Below, one piece after another: positions 2,901-23,311 of a stretch of 41,990 nucleotides of DNA. The position numbers and the translations under genes were made by a program. Positions within the stretch are counted from its first letter, which is position 1. The number at the start of each line of letters is the position of its first letter. The notes under the pieces were generated by a model, which was given only the letters and a program-made list of their open reading frames with translations, made no database searches and had not been told where the DNA came from. Origin of the DNA: a virus; IMG/VR virus record IMGVR_UViG_3300045988_092374, positions 1 to 41,990 of that record, one strand, 5' to 3'.

Positions 2901-3215
2901 CTATGCTGCGTCCTCCGAAAAGTCCAGTTCACTGATGCTCTCATTGACAGATTCCAAAATCTCATGTTTTTCAATGTAAGAGATCCAGGTCGATGGAAAT
3001 TCAGACTTAATTTCATGTTTTAAGTTATTGTATAGATTCTCCATTGCTTTCTTCCACATCTCACCAGCAGCCTTTTCCATTTTCTTATCCGCCCAGCGGG
3101 CCTTTGCCTGCCGTTTGGCATTTTTGACACACTGGAACTGCATCGCTTTAAACATAAATGTTTGATAACCAGCAAGATTCTTTTCCAAATATTCTAAAAA
3201 TTCTTTGTATTTCAT
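2901..3215 (-). CDS. Hypothetical protein co-oriented with the repressor
   Basis: 104-aa ORF whose start overlaps the repressor stop (3212-3215), which suggests one operon. Confidence 0.55.
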   Translation of the reverse strand: MKYKEFLEYLEKNLAGYQTFMFKAMQFQCVKNAKRQAKARWADKKMEKAAGEMWKKAMENLYNNLKHEIKSEFPSTWISYIEKHEILESVNESISELDFSEDAA

Positions 3216-3952
3216 AGTTCTTCCACCTTTCCCAACACCCGGCCAATTAGTCTTACGTCTTCTGTACCCTCTATATCCTCATATTCTGGGTTCCGAGAAA
3301 TCAATCCACGTTCTCCCAATTCTTTGATAAAACATTCATTATGGATTGTGAAAATTCCAACATCTCCAAAGGTCAATTCTTTGACCTTCTGCACGTAGAG
3401 CTTTTCGCCATCATGGTAGTTTGGTTCCATGCTATCACCACTTACTCCGATAATAAAGTCAGCTCCATTAAGAAAAGGTGCTTCTAAGGTATCTGTTGGA
3501 ATATCATCGAAATAAAAGCCGGTTCCAGCACAGGCAATCTTTCCAAGGTAGGTATAGAGGCGCAGGCGGGTTTGAGAGCGTTTGGCAGCAAGTTGGTGGC
3601 GTAGTTCAGTCAATTGAGCCGTGTTGTTGGCCAGAATCTCAGTGCGCTCTATTTCCCAATTCAACATGGTATCAACGTGCTGGCGACCGAGGTCATCGAG
3701 ATCACGGTATTTTTTTATAAGTAATTTCTCGGTGGGAGAAAATTCTCCAGCCTCTGTAGCAAGAAGATAATTTGGTGTAATGTCTAGAACACCGCATAAA
3801 AGCTCTATTGTGTCAGGGTCTGGCTTATTTTTATTATTTTCCCAATCACTTACAGAATTGTGTTTAGCTCCTATTTTCGCAGCAAGCTGTTTTTGAGTAA
3901 AGCCCTTTAATTTGCGAGCTTCTTTGATTTTTTCACCAAAAGTAAAATTCAT
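3212..3952 (-). CDS. CI/LexA-like phage repressor (XRE HTH plus S24 peptidase)
   Basis: HTH KGFTQKQLAAKIGAKHNSVSDWENN and S24 motifs GDSMEP and GRVLGK. It is divergent from the Cro-like gene. Confidence 0.9.
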   Translation of the reverse strand: MNFTFGEKIKEARKLKGFTQKQLAAKIGAKHNSVSDWENNKNKPDPDTIELLCGVLDITPNYLLATEAGEFSPTEKLLIKKYRDLDDLGRQHVDTMLNWEIERTEILANNTAQLTELRHQLAAKRSQTRLRLYTYLGKIACAGTGFYFDDIPTDTLEAPFLNGADFIIGVSGDSMEPNYHDGEKLYVQKVKELTFGDVGIFTIHNECFIKELGERGLISRNPEYEDIEGTEDVRLIGRVLGKVEEL

Positions 3953-3976
3953 TATTTCTTGCCTCCTTATAATGAA

Positions 3977-4090
3977 ATAGTAACATAGTGTTTCGATTTT
4001 GTAAATATAAAAATTTCGAAATTACCGAAAAAACATATTGACAATTCGAAATAGTCGGTATATGATATAATTACTTCGAACAAATCGAAA
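3977..4090. promoter_or_regulatory. Immunity switch: divergent promoters with TTCGAA-centred operators
   Basis: Leftward promoter TTTACA-17-TACTAT (4005 down to 3977) and rightward promoter TTGACA-17-TATGAT (4038-4066). Sites: AATTTCGAAATT 4012-4023 (perfect palindrome), AATTCGAAAT 4044-4053, CTTCGAACAAATCGAAA 4074-4090, TTTCGA 3991-3996. Confidence 0.65.
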
Positions 4091-4107
4091 AAGTGAGGTG
4101 ATAATAA

Positions 4108-12528: not shown

Positions 12529-12666
12529 ATGAAAGATTGTGAAGTTTGCATTTGTCCAGATTGCCAGAAGCAGGACGAATGCGAAATTTGTAACAAGTGC
12601 TATACCTGCCCTGGAGAACACGCAAAAAGTGAATGCCCTTATGGTGGGTTTGAATCAGATAATTGA
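12529..12666 (+). CDS. Cys-rich 45-aa protein
   Basis: MKDCEVCICPDCQKQDECEICNKCYTCPGEHAKSECPYGGFESDN (11 Cys). Confidence 0.45.
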   Translation: MKDCEVCICPDCQKQDECEICNKCYTCPGEHAKSECPYGGFESDN

Positions 12667-12697
12667 CATTTTGTATAGTAGGCTGGTGATTGATTAT

Positions 12698-13195
12698 ATG
12701 ATAGAACAAATTAAACTATTTCCGGATGGAGAACAGAAAAATGTGAGATTATATGTGGAACATGATACCACAGTTGATAATTGGATTAGGGAATATCATT
12801 ATCTCCACTCCGTCCCAGCTGGTGCCATATTAAGATTTTGTTTTAAAAATGCATCAGAAGAAATTCTTGGCTGCATGATGTGGGGGCGTCCCACAAGTAG
12901 AAAAATCAATCAAAAAAATATTTTAGAATTGACTAGAATGTACTTTGTAGATGATACTGAAGCATTTATTGAAAGTAAATGTTTAAGTATGGCACGTAAA
13001 TATATACGAAAGCATTGTCCAAACGTAAAAGGATTAATTGCATATTCTAGTACAGGCGCAGGACATGAAGGAATCGTATATCAAGCAGACAATTGGTACG
13101 CATTAGGTGGGCAAAAAGGTGGTAATTGGGAAAACCGAGAGCATCGTATTAATAGAGACTTGTCTACTAAAATAAGATGGACTCGAAGTCCATAA
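12698..13195 (+). CDS. GNAT-fold Mom-like protein (putative DNA adenine modification / anti-restriction)
   Basis: EYHYLHSVPAGA ... GCMMWGRP ... LELTRMY ... IAYSSTGAGHEGIVYQADNW fits the layout of proteins annotated as the Mom family. The segment is AT-rich. Confidence 0.45.
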   Translation: MIEQIKLFPDGEQKNVRLYVEHDTTVDNWIREYHYLHSVPAGAILRFCFKNASEEILGCMMWGRPTSRKINQKNILELTRMYFVDDTEAFIESKCLSMARKYIRKHCPNVKGLIAYSSTGAGHEGIVYQADNWYALGGQKGGNWENREHRINRDLSTKIRWTRSP

Positions 13196-13819: not shown

Positions 13820-14008
13820 GAGGGATTGCAACGAGCAAATCAGATTACATAAGAGTGGCAGAGCAGCGGCGCCGACGGGCATCCGTCCAGGACTACATCC
13901 TGAAGGGACCTCGGCCGGAGACCTGGTCGGCGGTGATGCCGGCATATTGTTACACGGTGTTGTGTCCGGTGCATGGGCTTCGGGACAAGCCGGGAGGGAG
14001 AAATATCA

Positions 14009-14281
14009 ATGAAGCGTAACAGAGATAAAATAGAACTTGCACGGATGGGGGCCATCTTTTCCAAAGATGTAGATAAGTGCAGGAACCGGGTTAAAATAGG
14101 TGATGCGTTTACTGTAGCAGACCCAGCATGGAAAAATGAGCAGGGAAACGGAGTAAGGCCAATGATGCGTGGCCGAGTGACAGCAAAGTATCCCCATCTG
14201 GTGACACTGAACTGCGGGACATCCATTACATACGTGCAGATCCTAATGATGCAACGGAACGGTCGGAAATATATTGATTAA
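14009..14281 (+). CDS. Small Veg-like protein, paralogue 2
   Basis: ATG 14009 after GGGAGGGAG. RVKIGD ... GRVTAKYPHLVTL ... ITYVQIL. Confidence 0.5.
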   Translation: MKRNRDKIELARMGAIFSKDVDKCRNRVKIGDAFTVADPAWKNEQGNGVRPMMRGRVTAKYPHLVTLNCGTSITYVQILMMQRNGRKYID

Positions 14282-14709
14282 TGGGGGTGGTGCCAGTGGG
14301 AATTAAGATAACCAGGAAGCTGCTAGATGATTACCGGCGCCTAAAGCGGGAGATTCCTCTCCTGGAGCTGGAGCTGGTCGAGATGCTGCAGGGGGATAAT
14401 GGTTTTGACAACAGTACGATATTTGATTATCGGACCGGAGAAGCACGACCGCAGAGCGTTGTGGGATTTGACTGGAAGCTGCGAGGGCATCGCGAGAAGG
14501 TATTGGATGGGAAAAAGGATAAGGTCAAAGCGGTTGAAAAATGGATTGAGGCCATAGAGGACGGGCAAACACGATGTGTATTTAAGATGTTTTACATTAA
14601 TGGGATGACATGGGAGCGGATTGCGGACAAGACTGGATATAGTAAAAGTCCTGATTACCCACGGAAATTGATTAGAGACACATATTTGGAAAAGTGTAAA
14701 ATTAAATAA
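14281..14709 (+). CDS. Late-gene transcriptional regulator (ArpU/RinA/sigma region-4-like)
   Basis: 142 aa. The C-terminal RCVFKMFYINGMTWERIADKTGYS is a sigma-70 region-4-type HTH. It occupies the classic position upstream of the packaging genes. Confidence 0.6.
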   Translation: MGVVPVGIKITRKLLDDYRRLKREIPLLELELVEMLQGDNGFDNSTIFDYRTGEARPQSVVGFDWKLRGHREKVLDGKKDKVKAVEKWIEAIEDGQTRCVFKMFYINGMTWERIADKTGYSKSPDYPRKLIRDTYLEKCKIK

Positions 14710-14711
14710 AG

Positions 14712-14745
14712 TTATCCGTTTTATCCGCCTTATCCGTTGTAGAAT
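14712..14745 (+). promoter_or_regulatory. Candidate activator-dependent late promoter
   Basis: Three tandem 9-mers TTATCCGTT/TTATCCGCC/TTATCCGTT (14712-14738) are followed after 1 nt by TAGAAT (14740-14745). There is no -35 hexamer. Confidence 0.5.
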
Positions 14746-14751
14746 ACAATT

Positions 14752-15088
14752 AGGCCAAAAGGCTAAATGCCGGAGGCCACTCCCCATACGGCCGCCAGCG
14801 TGTAAAAGCCTGGTGGTCGATTAGAAGCCGACGTTCTTACCGCTTTCTTCATGGCTTCACAAATCGGATAGAAAACGGCGGTTAGGTGACACGAAAGGTC
14901 CCTTGGTCGATATCATACCAGTTGGCTGCTGTGCGGCCCGAAAGATATCCGCTTAGCCAGCCGCGGAGTGAGCTGGTACATACCGGGGACGACCCGGTAT
15001 TGTGTGGAGCATACCATCAACGGGAGATGGACAGGGGCACCCTGGGTTCCGGTTCGATTCCGGATGCGCCGCTTGTATCTGTTTTTTT
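14752..15088 (+). ncRNA. Structured non-coding late leader RNA ending in a tRNA-like cloverleaf (class unknown)
   Basis: GC-rich and non-coding. GNRA-capped hairpins at 14888-14900 and around 14939-14944, plus helix GGCTG/CAGCC (14924-28 with 14958-62). A four-way junction spans 15004-15072 and includes T-arm TCCGG/TTCGATT/CCGGA. T7 run at 15082-15088. Confidence 0.45.
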
Positions 15089-15116
15089 CTCCCCAAGACA
15101 TTTTCAGATACGGATT

Positions 15117-15148
15117 AGGCACTTGGCTTATGGCTGAGTGCCTTTTCT
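15117..15148 (+). terminator. Rho-independent terminator
   Basis: AGGCACT (15117-23) pairs with AGTGCCT (15137-43) and is followed by TTTTCT. Confidence 0.6.
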
Positions 15149-15243
15149 ATTCCTTTTTGGTATTTGATTAAATCGAACAAATGTTCTATACTGATTATAC
15201 AAAACGGCAGACAATAATATGGGAAGAATTTCCAGAGGGGATG

Positions 15244-15252
15244 TGGTATAAT
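15244..15252 (+). promoter_or_regulatory. Extended -10 promoter of the AT-rich island
   Basis: TGGTATAAT lies 29 nt upstream of ATG 15281. Confidence 0.45.
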
Positions 15253-15280
15253 ATAAAAAAATGTCGATGGGAGAAACAAT

Positions 15281-16462
15281 ATGATAGAAATACCAGATTG
15301 GCTAAAAAAAGATTATCTTCATGTTAATGCTCTTAAAAATATTTGTTCTGATAAAAATTTAAGGGTTTCTGAAAATAAAGATATCTTAATAGATCAAATT
15401 ATAGAGTATGCGGGGGAAAATAAAAACAGCAAGAATTATCAGGAGATATATCAGTGGCTACTATCTACTATGAGAGAAGGGAGTAAGGATTTATGCTACA
15501 GAAAAATATATACTGATGAGTTGGAAGTAGCTGCTACTGAAAAAAAAATATTATCTATTTACCCAACATGTAAAAATAAAAATATTTTTGAAACTACAGT
15601 AGAAGAAAATTATTCATTAATAGAGTACGAGTTAATTGGAGATCGTACTATACAAGAGGCGAAATTTACTTTTGCTAAAAAGGTTCTTGAAAAATTAGGA
15701 ACAAATGATTTGGGGACAGAGGAAATATATCCCGTATTTATAGATGTTTATTTTGAAGAAGGTTTTATTGTTTGTAGAACACAACCTAAAGCATTATTGT
15801 ATGAATATAGTAGTGACAAGCTTGTGAAAAAAGAGAGAAAAATCAACACAATTAAAGATGGAAATAATTTGACAAATAAAATCATAGATATTTTTGGCTT
15901 TGAATATGATAAAAAAAATTGCAAACAACGTGTAATGAAAATGTTATACGAGTTATATAAAGTGCATGGAGATACACCAGAGAGTGTAAAAAATAAGATA
16001 GGTAGTATGGAAAAGGATACTAAAAGCTATCTTATTACAATTTTTGAAAAGCTAAAATTAGATATAACTAATATACCAAAAGCATTTGAAGATTTAGGGA
16101 TATTTTTGGAAAAATATATTTCCATTGAATCGAATATGGAAAATGAATTTAAAGCTGATAGAGATGCATATATTATTAAAATAGCTGCTGATGATGCGTT
16201 ACAAATGACAAAAATCGATGCCGCCTCTGCAATAACAAAACCATTACAATGTACAGACATATTCTATGATAGTAAAAAATCTATTATGAATACGAAAGAG
16301 TGTAGAAAATTAAATTTGTGTTATAATAGAAAAAGAGGATATTTGGGTCCATTTTTGGTTCAACACGATGCGAGAGATGGGTTTGGTATGCTTAAGGTTA
16401 AATATTTTGCAGAGGAGGTGGACATTCAAAATGTTTTACAAACAGTTTTTAGAAATTACTGA
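15281..16462 (+). CDS. SAP-domain protein of unknown function (island gene A)
   Basis: 393 aa. The N-terminal LHVNALKNICSDKNLRVSENKDILIDQII fits the SAP helix-extended-helix motif. I cannot assign the remaining ~340 aa. The gene is very AT-rich. Confidence 0.7.
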   Translation: MIEIPDWLKKDYLHVNALKNICSDKNLRVSENKDILIDQIIEYAGENKNSKNYQEIYQWLLSTMREGSKDLCYRKIYTDELEVAATEKKILSIYPTCKNKNIFETTVEENYSLIEYELIGDRTIQEAKFTFAKKVLEKLGTNDLGTEEIYPVFIDVYFEEGFIVCRTQPKALLYEYSSDKLVKKERKINTIKDGNNLTNKIIDIFGFEYDKKNCKQRVMKMLYELYKVHGDTPESVKNKIGSMEKDTKSYLITIFEKLKLDITNIPKAFEDLGIFLEKYISIESNMENEFKADRDAYIIKIAADDALQMTKIDAASAITKPLQCTDIFYDSKKSIMNTKECRKLNLCYNRKRGYLGPFLVQHDARDGFGMLKVKYFAEEVDIQNVLQTVFRNY

Positions 16463-17513
16463 TGGCCTAAATGCGGACGTTGTCAAAGAATTCGATTTCT
16501 GGTTGGCAACTTTACCAGAAAAAGAAGCTAAGTCAATTACTATAAGCACAGTAGCGTCAAGATTAGGAATACAATATTCTATAGCTGACCTTTTACTAGA
16601 GTTTGCATTACGGAAGGGTATACTAAAAAGAGCATATATGCTTGTTTGCCCAAATGAAGAATGCCACCTGCCACATAGTATATTAGATGCAAATGAAGTG
16701 CGAAATATGCTGGGAAAGGAAGAGTATTGTCATAATTGCCAAGAAGAGTTTGTTGTTGATCTAACTTGTATTATAAATATATATCAACGAAATAAGAAGC
16801 CTGATGTGTCAGATAGAATAATTAGGGATGAAATAATTAAAAGATTAGGTTTTGGAAAAGATGGTTTTGAGAATGAAATAAATTTTAATATAGCTGATTC
16901 TTTGGGGGCTAATAAAAAAGAAGTATATAATTTGTATTATGCTCCTGATGAATCAGCATATAAAAGATTCAAAATAATGAAAGATAAACTTGATTGGAAT
17001 TATGGGAAGGATACCACAGCTCAAGGAAAAGCATTAGAGATTTTAGCACTAGACATATTTAACCAAATACAAGGAGTCAGGTGTACTAATGATGTTAAAA
17101 CGAAAACTAACCAATTTGATTGCACTTGCTTATGCGGGATAAAGACAATCTTTCCATCAGTATTTTCTTATTTAGCTCCATATTTTCTTATTGAATGTAA
17201 GAATGAACCTAAAAAGAAGCCTAATAATACATATTGCAATAAGTTACTTAGTATTATGGATACAAATGAAGCACAGGTGGGAATTGTTTTCGGAAGAATA
17301 AATGCAACGGAACCTTGCTTTGTTATCTCAAGGGAGCATTACTTAAAACATTCAGAATCAAGAAGGCAACAAATTATTTTAACGTTCTCCGATGATGATT
17401 GGAATTGTTTAATTGACAATAAGGTTAACCTTTTAGCATATTTAGAATATAAGATATTTCAAATAACATCAAATTCCCCAGATGCTTCATATGAAATGTT
17501 TATTAAAAAGTAA
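16431..17513 (+). CDS. wHTH / zinc-ribbon / Mrr-like PD-(D/E)xK nuclease (island gene B)
   Basis: ATG 16431 follows AGAGGAGG and overlaps gene A by 32 nt. Motifs: CPNEEC...CHNC, then GKALEILALDIF ... FDCTC ... LIECKN ... VGIVFGR (Mrr catalytic-domain layout). Confidence 0.65.
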   Translation: MFYKQFLEITDGLNADVVKEFDFWLATLPEKEAKSITISTVASRLGIQYSIADLLLEFALRKGILKRAYMLVCPNEECHLPHSILDANEVRNMLGKEEYCHNCQEEFVVDLTCIINIYQRNKKPDVSDRIIRDEIIKRLGFGKDGFENEINFNIADSLGANKKEVYNLYYAPDESAYKRFKIMKDKLDWNYGKDTTAQGKALEILALDIFNQIQGVRCTNDVKTKTNQFDCTCLCGIKTIFPSVFSYLAPYFLIECKNEPKKKPNNTYCNKLLSIMDTNEAQVGIVFGRINATEPCFVISREHYLKHSESRRQQIILTFSDDDWNCLIDNKVNLLAYLEYKIFQITSNSPDASYEMFIKK

Positions 17514-17514
17514 A

Positions 17515-17539
17515 GGGCCGCCCACCCGTGGCTCTTTTT
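17515..17539 (+). terminator. Terminator after the island
   Basis: GGGCCGC pairs with GTGGCTC (7 bp including 2 G-U) and is followed by TTTTT. Confidence 0.5.
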
Positions 17540-17564
17540 CTATACCCAAAAGGAGGTGGGCTTG

Positions 17565-18011
17565 ATGGCAAAATATGAATATTGGATAACGCCGGAAGGC
17601 TTACTGAAGCTGGAGGCTTGGGCGCGGGATGGTCTGACCGATGAGCAAATCGCCGCGAATGCCGGTATAGCCACAGCCACGCTGTATGACTGGAAAAAGC
17701 GGTATCTGGAGATATCAGAGGCCCTAAAAAAGGGTAAAGAGGTTGTTGACATTCAAGTGGAGAATGCGCTCCTGAAACGGGCGTTGGGTTATACCTATAC
17801 GGAAACCAAAAAGGAAAGGACAGCCGAAGGAGTAAGAACCACTACAACAATCAAAGAAGTAGTTCCGGACACTACAGCGCAGATCTTCTGGCTGAAGAAC
17901 CGGCGCCCGGACCGCTGGCGGGATAAACAGGACATACATGTATCAGGTAGTCTCAACACCGAGAAAACGAAACTGGATGACTTGCTGAAACAGATGAGGG
18001 GTGATGGATAG
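17565..18011 (+). CDS. terS: Terminase small subunit
   Basis: HTH TDEQIAANAGIATATLYDWKKRY and FWLKNRRPDRW. ATG lies 8 nt after AGGAGG, directly upstream of terL. Confidence 0.8.
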   Translation: MAKYEYWITPEGLLKLEAWARDGLTDEQIAANAGIATATLYDWKKRYLEISEALKKGKEVVDIQVENALLKRALGYTYTETKKERTAEGVRTTTTIKEVVPDTTAQIFWLKNRRPDRWRDKQDIHVSGSLNTEKTKLDDLLKQMRGDG

Positions 18012-19375
18012 TGAGTGATGAGCGCTTGCTGCTGTCGGAAAAGTATAAGGCCTTCCTCTGTTGCAACGCGCCGGTGGAGTTCCTGGAGGGGACAACGGCT
18101 GCCGGTAAGACGACAGTAGGATTGTTCAAGTTCATGCTAAAGGTGGCTGAATCTCCAAAAAAGCTGCATATCCTGGCAGCGGATGACACCGGCGCCGCGG
18201 AGAAGAACATCATCAATAAGGACCTGGGTATCCTGGATGACTTCGGCGTGCTGGTGGAATACAAAGGCAACGGTTCCGGTGAGTATAAAATGCCTCACCT
18301 GCTGTTCCACACATCGGGCGGTGACAAGATAGTCTTTGTCGTCGGCTATGGTAATAAGCGCAAGTGGAAGGATGCCCTGGGCGGCCAATACGGTTGCCTG
18401 TATATCGATGAGATTAACACGGCCGATATCGATTTTGTACGGGAGGCAGCCATGCGGTGTGACTACCTGATGGCCACACTCAATCCGGATGACCCGAATT
18501 TGCCGATATACAAAGAGTATATAAATTGCTCCCGGCCGCTCCCGGAGTGGGAGGCGGAGACACCACAGGAAATTAAAGATGAGCTAAAAGAAGAACCAAA
18601 ACCCGGCTGGGTGCATTGGTTCTTTTCTTTTGCCCATAACCTGGGACTGCCGGCGGAGAAACTGCAGCAGATTATCCAGAATACGCCAGCAGGGACTAAA
18701 ATTCACAAGAACAAGATTCTCGGCCTGCGCGGAAAGGCGACCGGCCTTATCTTCCCGAACTTTGACCGCAAAATACATGTGGTCACGGTTGCCTGGGTGA
18801 AGCAGCAGATGGCCGCCGGAAAGATAAAATTCAAGAAGTTCACAGCTGGCCTGGACACATCCTACTCCAGCAAGTCACCGGATACGATTGCCATGCTCTT
18901 TCAAGGCATCACCGAAGACCGACGCCTGATTGTGCTGGCCGAGAAGGTCTATAGCAATGCGGATTTGTCCCAGCCGTTGGCACCATCTGACACCGCGGTC
19001 AAGTTTGTAGAGTTCATGGAGCGCTGTCGAAAGGACTGGGGATTTGCAAAGGATGTCTTTATCGACAGCGCGGACCAGGCGACCATCACAGAGCTGCGCA
19101 AGTACAAGCGGCTTCATGGCTGCCTGTATAACTTTGTGGATGCATACAAACGGGTTGAGATTATCGACCGTATCAAGCTGCAGCTTGGATGGATCCAGCA
19201 GGGATGTTACCTGGTGGTGGATACCTGCCCGGAGCATCTGGGAGAACTGGACCGGTATTCGTGGGATGAAGACAAGGACCGGCCCGAGGATCGCAATGAT
19301 CACACGATTAATGCATCACAGTATGGATGGATTCCATACAAGAAAATGATAGGTTTTGAGGAGGAAAATAGATGA
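18011..19375 (+). CDS. terL: Terminase large subunit
   Basis: 454 aa with Walker A GTTAAGKTT and a C-terminal nuclease-type acidic region. Confidence 0.9.
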   Translation: MSDERLLLSEKYKAFLCCNAPVEFLEGTTAAGKTTVGLFKFMLKVAESPKKLHILAADDTGAAEKNIINKDLGILDDFGVLVEYKGNGSGEYKMPHLLFHTSGGDKIVFVVGYGNKRKWKDALGGQYGCLYIDEINTADIDFVREAAMRCDYLMATLNPDDPNLPIYKEYINCSRPLPEWEAETPQEIKDELKEEPKPGWVHWFFSFAHNLGLPAEKLQQIIQNTPAGTKIHKNKILGLRGKATGLIFPNFDRKIHVVTVAWVKQQMAAGKIKFKKFTAGLDTSYSSKSPDTIAMLFQGITEDRRLIVLAEKVYSNADLSQPLAPSDTAVKFVEFMERCRKDWGFAKDVFIDSADQATITELRKYKRLHGCLYNFVDAYKRVEIIDRIKLQLGWIQQGCYLVVDTCPEHLGELDRYSWDEDKDRPEDRNDHTINASQYGWIPYKKMIGFEEENR

Positions 19376-21461: not shown

Positions 21462-21663
21462 GCAGGTGCCGTTCGGGATTTACGCGGTTGAGAAGCAGGG
21501 GTATGCGGAGCTGCGCTGTGATAAGTGTAGGAGCATAACCCAGCTTAAGGAGTTGACTCGGCAGTTTAAGGCCCGGGGGTACAGGGTGTACTCCAATAGG
21601 GGGATACATCTGGCGGAAGGTGGCTGCATGGCTGCGGAAGGGGCGCTGATGAGTGCGACATAA
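21385..21663 (+). CDS. Hypothetical small protein overlapping the portal 3' end
   Basis: 92-aa ORF in an alternative frame. Coding status is uncertain. Confidence 0.3.
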   Translation: MKVKVMNRTYQMGREEYQGLLQVAREQVPFGIYAVEKQGYAELRCDKCRSITQLKELTRQFKARGYRVYSNRGIHLAEGGCMAAEGALMSAT

Positions 21664-23311
21664 TGAGTATGATGTAGGTGCTGCCTTCCAGGCCATTGAA
21701 AAGGAGCTCATGGCATCCATGATACGGAACATGGACCGGCACCGGGCAGAAGAGACCAAGGAAGGCATTGAGTGGTCCATGTGGCAGGCCGAACAGCTGA
21801 AAGCTTTGGAGAAGTATAAGCGGGAGAATCAGAAACGGTACAGCAAGCAGTTTAAGTCTATAAATGGGCAGATAGGAGAACTGCTCTACCAGTCGCGGCA
21901 GACCGGTAACATGCAGCAGGAAATCCAGATATTGAAAGCTATACAGAGGGGATACCGATTCCCAAACATGCCAAAGAAGTTGTTTGGCTTATTGGAAGAA
22001 ATGGATGGGAAGACATTTCGGCAGAAGGCATCACTACTGGTTAAGCGTTGGAAGGGCAAAGAGGCTGCCCAAGCAACAGCAGAGTTTTTTAAACTTAATG
22101 ACCGAAAGCTGGAAGTACTTATCAAAGCAACGACTCAAGACATGGAACGGGCAGAGACAGCGGTGCTTCGGATGGCCGACGACCAATACCGGAAAGCTAT
22201 TTTTAATGCTCAGGTCTATGCCAATACCGGCGCCGGAACTTACGAGAAGGCCGTGGATATGGCCACCAAGGACATGCTTTCCCGGGGCCTGAACTGTGTG
22301 GAGTATGCCAACGGTGCCCGCCATACCCTGGCAGATTATGCCGACATGGCCATCCGGACGGCATCCAAGCGGGCTTACCTGCAGGGAGAGGGGGAGAAAA
22401 GGCAGGAATGGGGGATTACCACCGTGATTGTCAACAAGCGCGGGAACCCGTGTCCGAAGTGCCTGCCATTTGTCGGTAAGGTCCTGATTGACGACGTCTG
22501 GTCCGGCGGAAAGAAATCCGATGGGCCGTATCCCCTCATGAGCAAGGCCATAGCATCCGGACTGTATCATCCCAGGTGCAAGGACAGCCATACAACCTAT
22601 TTCCCTGGAATCTCCACTGCGGACGACACCTGGACCAAGGAGGAACTGGATGCGGTCGGTCAGGCCAATAAGCAGGAGGCCGAGCAGCAATATGCGTCAC
22701 GGCAGGCAGAAAGATATGGGCGGCTGGCTAAGTATTCATTGGATGAGGACAATAAAAAGCAGTACGGACAGAGGGCGAAGGAGTGGCAGGACATCCAGTT
22801 TAAGACTGGCGGCATGGGTAGGTCAGTGGATGTTACAGAAGAATGGATGGAAGAGGCGTCACCGAACTCGCATGAAGTAGTTGACCTATCTGAATATACA
22901 TTAAACGGCACTACATATAAGGTTGATGGAAAACATGTATTGTTGGATTATTCAGATAAGGAAAAACAGATAGCGCAACTTTTGAAACGTGAACTCGGAG
23001 GCGAAATATTCATGGTTCCCAGGGTTTTGGATCCACCTGGAATATCAACGCCAGATTACATATTCAGAGGAGAGGCATTTGATTTAAAAGAGTTGTCAGG
23101 CACAAGCAAAAATTTGATTTATAATGTGGTTTCAAAGAAAAAACGACAGGCGGGCAATTTTATCCTGGATATTACTCAATGTCCGTTGGATGAGAGTGAG
23201 TTATATAAGCAGGCAGACGATATTTATTGGTCAAGACATACAGCCTTTGTAGATAAAATAATATTTATTAAAGATGGCCAGATAAGAAAAATCTTCAGGA
23301 GAAAAAAATAA
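21653..23311 (+). CDS. MuF / SPP1 gp7-like head morphogenesis protein fused to a C-terminal PD-(D/E)xK toxin-like module
   Basis: The MuF core ends near NPCPKCLP...HPRCKDSH. The last ~150 aa are AT-rich and carry ISTPDYIFRGEAFDLKEL (D ... D-x-K). Confidence 0.7.
   Translation: MRHNEYDVGAAFQAIEKELMASMIRNMDRHRAEETKEGIEWSMWQAEQLKALEKYKRENQKRYSKQFKSINGQIGELLYQSRQTGNMQQEIQILKAIQRGYRFPNMPKKLFGLLEEMDGKTFRQKASLLVKRWKGKEAAQATAEFFKLNDRKLEVLIKATTQDMERAETAVLRMADDQYRKAIFNAQVYANTGAGTYEKAVDMATKDMLSRGLNCVEYANGARHTLADYADMAIRTASKRAYLQGEGEKRQEWGITTVIVNKRGNPCPKCLPFVGKVLIDDVWSGGKKSDGPYPLMSKAIASGLYHPRCKDSHTTYFPGISTADDTWTKEELDAVGQANKQEAEQQYASRQAERYGRLAKYSLDEDNKKQYGQRAKEWQDIQFKTGGMGRSVDVTEEWMEEASPNSHEVVDLSEYTLNGTTYKVDGKHVLLDYSDKEKQIAQLLKRELGGEIFMVPRVLDPPGISTPDYIFRGEAFDLKELSGTSKNLIYNVVSKKKRQAGNFILDITQCPLDESELYKQADDIYWSRHTAFVDKIIFIKDGQIRKIFRRKK

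Follow-up and report, generated by a model that had tools for sequence, protein, structure and literature searches.

A predicted RdgC-fold protein and a PD-(D/E)xK nuclease encoded by a mobile gene pair in a gut Clostridia prophage: a candidate undescribed defence cassette

The IMG/VR virus record IMGVR_UViG_3300045988_092374 was analyzed over its 41,990 nucleotides (positions 1 to 41,990, hereafter the window) and corresponds to a temperate phage of gut Clostridia, integrated at a tRNA gene. Between its putative late-gene regulator and its small terminase gene (terS), two overlapping genes, here named A and B, form a cassette that we consider, with moderate confidence, to be an undescribed anti-phage defence or superinfection-exclusion system carried as prophage cargo, in which a DNA-sensing core would be associated with a nuclease effector. 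This reading, drawn from sequence comparison and structure modelling, is supported by the mobility of the cargo, the sharing of its slot with candidate defence genes, the strict pairing of the two genes, the swapping of effectors in distant relatives, the predicted folds of both proteins and the conservation of the catalytic residues.

Gene A (15281-16462, plus strand, 393 aa) is preceded by the ribosome binding site (RBS) GGGAGA at 15269-15274, and gene B (16431-17513, plus strand, 360 aa) by a GGAGG located 12 nt upstream of its start. The initial annotation of this DNA had described two open reading frames (ORFs) on the plus strand overlapping by 32 nt, and both were found as described, the overlap spanning 16431-16462. 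The start of B was fixed at 16431, and not at the upstream ATG (16368) of the program-made ORF list, since 41 of 41 aligned homologues open with MFYKQF. The co-occurrence of the two genes was then evaluated in 43 loci, of which an exact-protein look-up supplied 4, GTDB genomes 15 and IMG/VR 24, through a profile search of six-frame ORFs. Gene A was located directly upstream of B wherever upstream sequence existed (about 35 loci), in agreement with the co-occurrence on which the initial proposal relied, and the 32-nt overlap was near-universal, being identical in the A-B pair formed by gp27 and gp28 of Clostridium phage CP51. Such an overlap points to translational coupling. The only exceptions to the pairing were contig edges or decayed copies, namely two loci where A is truncated (L008, L015) and a third one (L019) where B is reduced to a remnant.

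The pair occupies accessory slots of at least seven kinds. It lies before terS in an unrelated P22-portal phage, between terL and the portal gene in a Blautia phage, between the tape measure and distal tail (Dit) genes inside a tail module, between lysin and integrase in phage CP51, and, at the border of an integrated element, next to a large serine recombinase. It is also present in a chromosomal island that carries three recombinase-like genes together with an XRE regulator, where it lies between a HaeIII-like restriction endonuclease and a ResIII/Eco57I system. Defence cargo is typically scattered in this way over accessory sites of diverse mobile elements. The index of an assembly collection lists the exact B protein in 234 blocks and two relatives in 469 and 500 blocks. 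A tblastn search of the PLSDB plasmids gave no match to B.

The composition of the cassette and its distribution among sister phages both point to its mobility. The G+C content of positions 15150-17545 is 30.2% (28.2% for A and 31.2% for B) vs. 46.4% elsewhere in the window, and no other 2.4-kb stretch of the window is lower. Hence, the AT-rich island reported initially is real, whereas the 63% then given for terL from a single 60-nt line was too high, the measured value being 51.9%. The block starting at 15003 and ending at 17545 is 99.3% identical in another locus (L001), whose flanks differ. Conversely, in L052 the left flank (14690-14950) is 99% identical to the window and terS is 94% identical at the DNA level and 97% at the protein level, but the slot is occupied by about 940 nt holding a DUF2971 gene instead of the pair, which corresponds to the PADLOC candidate PDC-S31 (E 1.5e-50). 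The L001 slot additionally contains HicAB and a DUF6932/PDC-M63B pair alongside the same cassette, and that of L062 contains an SDH ClpP-like protease. In relatives keeping both the regulator and terS, the gap between these genes ranges from 195 to 1447 nt, vs. 2.85 kb in the window. The regulator/terS junction thus behaves as the variable cargo slot that had been suspected, as illustrated by L052 and L001. From the difference in G+C content (30% vs. 46%), the 99.3% identical copy in another backbone and the replacement observed in L052, the segment 15003-17545 (approximate borders) appears to be a horizontally mobile, self-contained two-gene cassette. The candidates PDC-S31 and PDC-M63 share the same pre-terS slot in sister phages, but their proteins are unrelated to A and B and the link is positional only.

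The cassette is flanked by its own putative transcription signals. A terminator-like hairpin (15117-15143, plus strand, -21.9 kcal/mol, z -4.5), with a 12-bp stem followed by the T-run TTTTCTATTCC, sits upstream of the cassette promoter and within the block that travels with the cassette. At the right border, a second terminator-like hairpin followed by a T-run occurs at 17515-17539 (plus strand, -14.2 kcal/mol, z -3.1), and a GC-rich hairpin with a T-run directly follows B in about 17 of 26 distinct loci. The bracketing of the pair by such elements, as well as the extended -10 TGGTATAAT at 15244-15252 (plus strand, 29 nt from the A start codon, read from the sequence), had been noticed in the initial annotation and were both recovered here. 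Of the 26 distinct loci, 15 contain the motif TGnTAnn[A/T]T at a distance of 30-65 nt ahead of A, for a chance rate estimated by hand at about 5% in an AT-rich 35-nt window. Another promoter candidate, of sigma-70-like type (TTGATT-17-TATACT, 15164-15192, plus strand), agrees with the consensus at 9 of 12 positions and is a consensus match only. Because promoter-like and terminator-like sites flank the pair and recur in diverse relatives, the A-B pair looks like a self-contained transcription unit, which could therefore be expressed in the lysogen. The distance between the stop codon of B and the start of terS is 43 nt, mostly occupied by the terminator hairpin and the RBS (17514-17555), and leaves the packaging operon no room for a promoter of its own in this gap. 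As a result, the late packaging operon would be either read through the cassette and both hairpins or driven by the cassette promoter.

The structure of A was modelled by AlphaFold2 (AF2) with good confidence (pLDDT 92.9, pTM 0.88). According to Foldseek, the best PDB fold match of this model is E. coli RdgC (2owl_A, E 4e-4, probability 1.0), near full length, and the next one is CENP-N, the orthologue of Chl4. The best viral fold matches, in BFVD, are phage RdgC-like “recombination-associated” proteins (probability up to 1.0). Hence, the approximately 340 residues left unassigned by the initial annotation are predicted to adopt an RdgC fold (about aa 50-393), the fold class published for lambda RexA. 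Indeed, the crystal structure of RexA is reported to display a fold shared with RdgC and Iml3/Chl4, and non-specific DNA binding by dimers is described for RexA as well as its actinophage homologues (PMC11077077). RdgC also binds DNA in this manner. At the sequence level, the RdgC Pfam profile (PF04381) gave no match at E ≤ 5 in any of 40 A-family members, and single-protein and profile searches of PDB sequences returned nothing above noise for A or B. At 50% identity, the A family falls into 265 clusters of uniform architecture, of which about 120 are full length (about 400 aa).

The N-terminus of A (about aa 10-45) is SAP-like. Of 40 homologues, 10-12 match SAP or SAP_new25 below threshold, with a best E of 3e-4, and the AF2 model places helices at residues 15-24 and 33-44, but the SAP profile (PF02037) gave no match in the window protein itself. 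The SAP-type opening proposed initially is thus weakly supported, by the homologues and not by the window protein. The conserved basic residues R166, K168, K170, R294, K300, K332, K333 and R350 are compatible with DNA binding, and A is proposed to be a DNA-binding sensor. Among metagenomic proteins, a truncated C-terminal half of A (aa 165-393) was found alone in P0206, and fused in frame to a VapE-like or an AAA_25 fragment in P0207 and P0209. As these fusions contain the same truncated C-terminus as P0206, they were rejected as functional architectures and look like deletion scars at decayed cassettes.

Protein B, whose homologues form 221 clusters, was modelled with a pLDDT of 87.8 and combines three parts on the plus strand. 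Its residues 1-70 (16431-16640) form a winged helix, for which a Ribosomal_S25-type winged helix-turn-helix (wHTH) match was obtained below threshold in 37 of 42 homologues and which resembles, according to Foldseek, MarR/ArsR-type regulators and TFE-alpha. Residues 71-120 (16641-16790) form a four-cysteine zinc ribbon with weak matches to zinc-ribbon Pfam families; its cysteines C73, C78, C100 and C103 are invariant in the 42 sequences and at least 90% conserved over a divergent set. A helical linker separates this ribbon from a PD-(D/E)xK core spanning residues 190-346 (first residue approximate; 16998-17468). In this core, E203 (17037-17039), D230 (17118-17120), E255 (17193-17195) and K257 (17199-17201) are likewise invariant in 42 sequences. 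Every nuclease-bearing relative retains them, down to about 23-24% identity, including those of CP51, the Blautia phage and Fusibacter as well as split-gene versions (23-38% identity). The conservation of the D...ExK residues, which the initial proposal required, holds down to 24% identity.

The AF2 model of the core displays an alpha-beta-beta-beta-alpha-beta order, with helices at 195-210 and 266-277 and strands at 216-219, 231-235, 251-256 and 283-287. Its Foldseek matches are weak, all above E 1e-3, and comprise the N-domain of Rpb5 (E 3.5e-3), 1y88 and EcoT38I, which are restriction-endonuclease-like folds; the search with full-length B was dominated by the winged helix. Sub-threshold matches of B relatives to Mrr_cat and HSDR_N_2 fall on the catalytic core. 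For Mrr_cat (PF04471), they concern 3 of 42 relatives and stay below the cut-off (best E 0.0041), as in P0096 with 15.5 bits vs. 21 over aa 202-304, and no match at E ≤ 5 was found in the window protein. Taken together, the model and the conserved residues make a C-terminal PD-(D/E)xK nuclease a well-supported assignment. The initial description of B as a wHTH-like N-terminus, a zinc-ribbon-like element and a PD-(D/E)xK layout is consequently retained, its key residues being invariant in the 42 sequences, but the label “Mrr-type” reflects a resemblance below threshold only.

Among distant relatives of A, the core is kept and the effector varies. In L133, A is followed by a 138-aa wHTH/zinc-ribbon gene and then by a separate nuclease gene keeping TNQYD...ECKNE. 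In six other loci (L132, L134, L135, L140, L147 from GCA_000309805.1, and L148), the wHTH/zinc-ribbon module stands alone after A (147-200 aa), without nuclease, and the gene directly preceding A codes for a membrane protein of about 270 aa, which is homologous among these loci and has two or three hydrophobic segments near its N-terminus. The gene of this membrane protein overlaps A in L132, L134, L140, L147 and L148 and ends 11 nt before A in L135. In L136, the gene after the wHTH/zinc-ribbon one encodes a small protein whose hydrophobic segments are C-terminal. Because the nuclease is fused, separately encoded, or absent with an upstream membrane protein, the conserved core consists of A and the wHTH/zinc-ribbon half of B, the nuclease being a swappable effector. 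An exchange between these two effector types at an unchanged sensor is a hallmark of abortive-infection systems. A metagenome scan with a narrower alignment of distant A relatives yielded one further locus only, and the N-terminal half of B, used for a profile search, retrieved short stand-alone proteins only and no new effector fusions. On the phage-like contig L133, just upstream of the split-nuclease version of the pair, a Tad2-like gene was observed (3475-4098). Tad2 being an anti-Thoeris family, this would set an anti-defence gene beside a candidate defence cassette.

The initial annotation had recognized no named system in this pair, and no significant match for A or B was found in Pfam, NCBIfam, PHROGs or PADLOC. 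In PADLOC-DB v2.0.0, no family matched the window proteins at E ≤ 1, and distant relatives of A and B gave none at E ≤ 0.01, except for one marginal WH_III-A match (E 0.007). Some relatives of B carry a faint precomputed match to PF26783/DUF8255. As no description of the pair was found in the searchable literature either, the cassette appears to be an undescribed pair of two uncharacterized families.

Under the defence hypothesis, A, probably as a dimer, would monitor DNA together with the wHTH/zinc-ribbon module. The trigger could be a feature of the infecting phage, such as a replication or recombination intermediate or a phage protein-DNA complex, as proposed for RexA. This sensor core would then license the tethered nuclease to cut the DNA of the invader, that of the host or both, so that the invader would be stopped directly or via abortive infection. 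With its own promoter and terminator, the cassette could be expressed from the lysogen.

Such an organization recalls the RexA/RexB system of lambda and the Rex-like systems of actinophages (gp30/31 of Sbash, gp43/44 of CarolAnn and gp30/31 of Butters), which are likewise prophage-borne exclusion cassettes. The best fold matches of A are RdgC and CENP-N, and RexA has been reported with the same fold; moreover, the variant loci coupling A to a membrane protein are RexA/RexB-like in outline. However, A possesses an extra SAP-like N-terminus, a third module (wHTH/zinc ribbon) is always present, the effector in the window is a nuclease with no membrane partner in the window, and the hosts are Clostridia. 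No similarity to RexA or RexB was found at the sequence or profile level, as hhalign gave a probability of 0.2% between the A family and lambda RexA and of 0.5% between the membrane partner of about 270 aa and RexB. RdgC (PF04381) and the phage RdgC-like proteins are the best structural matches over almost all of A, but A differs from them in the absence of a Pfam RdgC match, in TM-scores of 0.3-0.4, in being about 90 aa longer with its SAP-like head, and in its constant coupling to B in accessory slots. As for Mrr and the type IV enzymes, which associate an Mrr_N winged helix with Mrr_cat, B shares the N-terminal winged helix and a C-terminal core with E...D...ExK. Unlike them, it has a zinc ribbon and a helical linker inserted between these parts, its matches lie under the curated cut-off (15.5 vs. 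21 bits for P0096), it is an obligate partner of A, and its nuclease half can be detached or exchanged.

Several observations weigh against a defence function. No sequence-level link of A or B to any validated defence protein was detected with PADLOC or hhalign, and the hhalign probabilities given above for RexA and RexB are part of this negative result. At the structural level, the TM-scores between A and RdgC are modest (0.35/0.42), and lambda RexA was not among the top 50 PDB fold matches of A in Foldseek. In phages, the pair is always co-oriented with the surrounding late genes, with B located 43 nt from terS, so that the two genes may be co-transcribed late and serve the lytic cycle of the phage itself. 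Finally, in two near-identical cassettes (L004 and L001), A is split by 1-nt deletions while B is intact. These deletions fall in poly-A runs of gene A (A9 at 15541-15549 and A8 at 15910-15917) in cassettes otherwise 99-100% identical, and could result from assembly errors or from slipped-strand on/off switching. If they are real, A would be dispensable for tolerating B.

This last point bears on another explanation, in which the pair would be a toxin-antitoxin or addiction module, the nuclease B being held inactive by A and the carrier element being stabilized, with defence as a secondary effect. The two-gene overlapping architecture with the nuclease in second position, the presence of the pair on many kinds of mobile element and the HicAB neighbour in L001 would fit such a module. 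However, A is bigger than B (393 vs. 360 aa) and its predicted fold recalls a DNA-binding sensor, in contrast to the small proteins that usually act as antitoxins, and two cassettes combine a frameshifted A with an intact B, unless they are assembly errors. Besides, nuclease and membrane-protein effectors replace each other around an unchanged core of A and the N-terminal part of B, a pattern more usual for sensor-effector defence systems. An addiction module is hence regarded as unlikely. A function in the DNA metabolism of the phage itself, where an RdgC-like modulator of RecA or recombination and a nuclease would process or degrade DNA during the lytic cycle of the carrier, seems somewhat less plausible still. 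Many phages do encode RdgC-like proteins annotated as recombination-associated, and the co-orientation with the late genes and the 43-nt distance to terS are in line with this role. Nevertheless, near-identical phages lack the pair and carry unrelated cargo instead, and copies of the pair are also found outside phages, in chromosomal islands, close to restriction systems and insertion sequence (IS) elements. The window phage already possesses a Sak-type recombinase module, seen in its matching scaffold L003, and the variants with a membrane protein fit recombination poorly.

The weak Mrr_cat and HSDR_N_2 matches on the core of B, together with its winged-helix and PD-(D/E)xK layout, also raise the hypothesis of an Mrr-like type IV modification-dependent restriction enzyme, in which B alone would restrict modified DNA and A would be an accessory DNA-binding subunit. 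The carrier phage encodes a Mom-family DNA-modification protein (12539-13195), which would agree with such an enzyme. Yet the Mrr_cat matches remain under the Pfam cut-off and are found in 3 of 42 members only, B was never found without A, and the wHTH/zinc-ribbon half persists without nuclease in the membrane-protein variants, making this explanation improbable. The least probable of the explanations considered is that B is a selfish mobile nuclease, i.e., a homing-type endonuclease inserting between conserved phage genes with the assistance of A. It would account for the insertions between conserved genes (terL and portal, tape measure and Dit, or before terS), for the AT-rich composition and for the near-identical copies in different phage backbones. 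On the other hand, the many unrelated insertion contexts argue against a single target site, chromosomal non-phage copies exist, and the second, larger gene is strictly conserved while some variants have no nuclease at all. The undescribed defence or exclusion system thus remains the favoured interpretation of the cassette.

If confirmed, this interpretation would add a new defence family, common in phages of human-gut Clostridia and outside PADLOC-DB v2.0.0. The A-B family ties the RdgC fold, reported for RexA, to a modular sensor-effector design. As a tentative extension, A and the wHTH/zinc-ribbon module could represent a widespread RdgC-fold DNA sensor of the RexA kind, recognizing infection-specific DNA structures and working with interchangeable effectors. 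If such a sensor class exists, lambda Rex would be one specialized member of a broader, previously unrecognized class, and the nuclease versions would give access in vitro, through DNA cleavage, to the long-standing question of what RexA-type proteins sense and what activates Rex.

The pre-terS slot, with its tRNA-like marker, constitutes a defined hotspot that can be mined for more cargo. This tRNA-like element (15004-15072, plus strand) forms the left border of the slot and contains three hairpins, including a canonical T-arm, but no D-arm. It consists of an acceptor-like stem, two hairpins and the T-arm TCCGG-TTCGATT-CCGGA, with one compensatory pair among five copies. Copies were found in L001 (8572-8640 and 11954-12021), L052 (262-313) and L062 (about 1420-1490), where they precede other cargo; in L001, the two copies bracket the A-B-HicAB block. 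ARAGORN found nothing in this element and Rfam returned only tRNA-Sec (19 bits, E 0.5). Its possible roles are a landmark for recombination, a signal for RNA processing or a part of a read-through leader.

The remainder of the window is consistent with a prophage. The 3' part of a tRNA gene at 1-45 (32.4 bits, model positions 28-71 of 71) adjoins a tyrosine integrase (206-1324) and presumably marks the attachment junction, and an S24/XRE repressor is encoded at 3212-3952. Positions 13900-18100 match the human-gut metagenome scaffold L003 at 100%. On the left of the cassette, the putative late-gene regulator (14281-14709, plus strand, 142 aa) matches the Pfam family DUF1492 with 21.6 bits for a cut-off of 21.5, and Sigma70_r4_2 weakly. 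On its right, terS (17556-18011, plus strand) is of the HTH_Tnp_1 type and abuts terL (18011-19375); homologues of this terS are named in phage records either terS or “activator of late transcription”. The Mom-family gene (Pfam Mom, E 1.2e-21) is located about 2 kb upstream of the cassette and is replaced by a C5 DNA methylase in sister phages (L002). Self-protection or anti-restriction through DNA modification would be a possible role. Further downstream, a minor-capsid-type protein (Phage_min_cap2, 552 aa, 21653-23311), corresponding to the gene at 15223-16881 of L003, carries a CdiA_C toxin-like domain, and at the equivalent position sister phages encode a Mu_F protein to which an ADP-ribosyltransferase toxin domain is fused.

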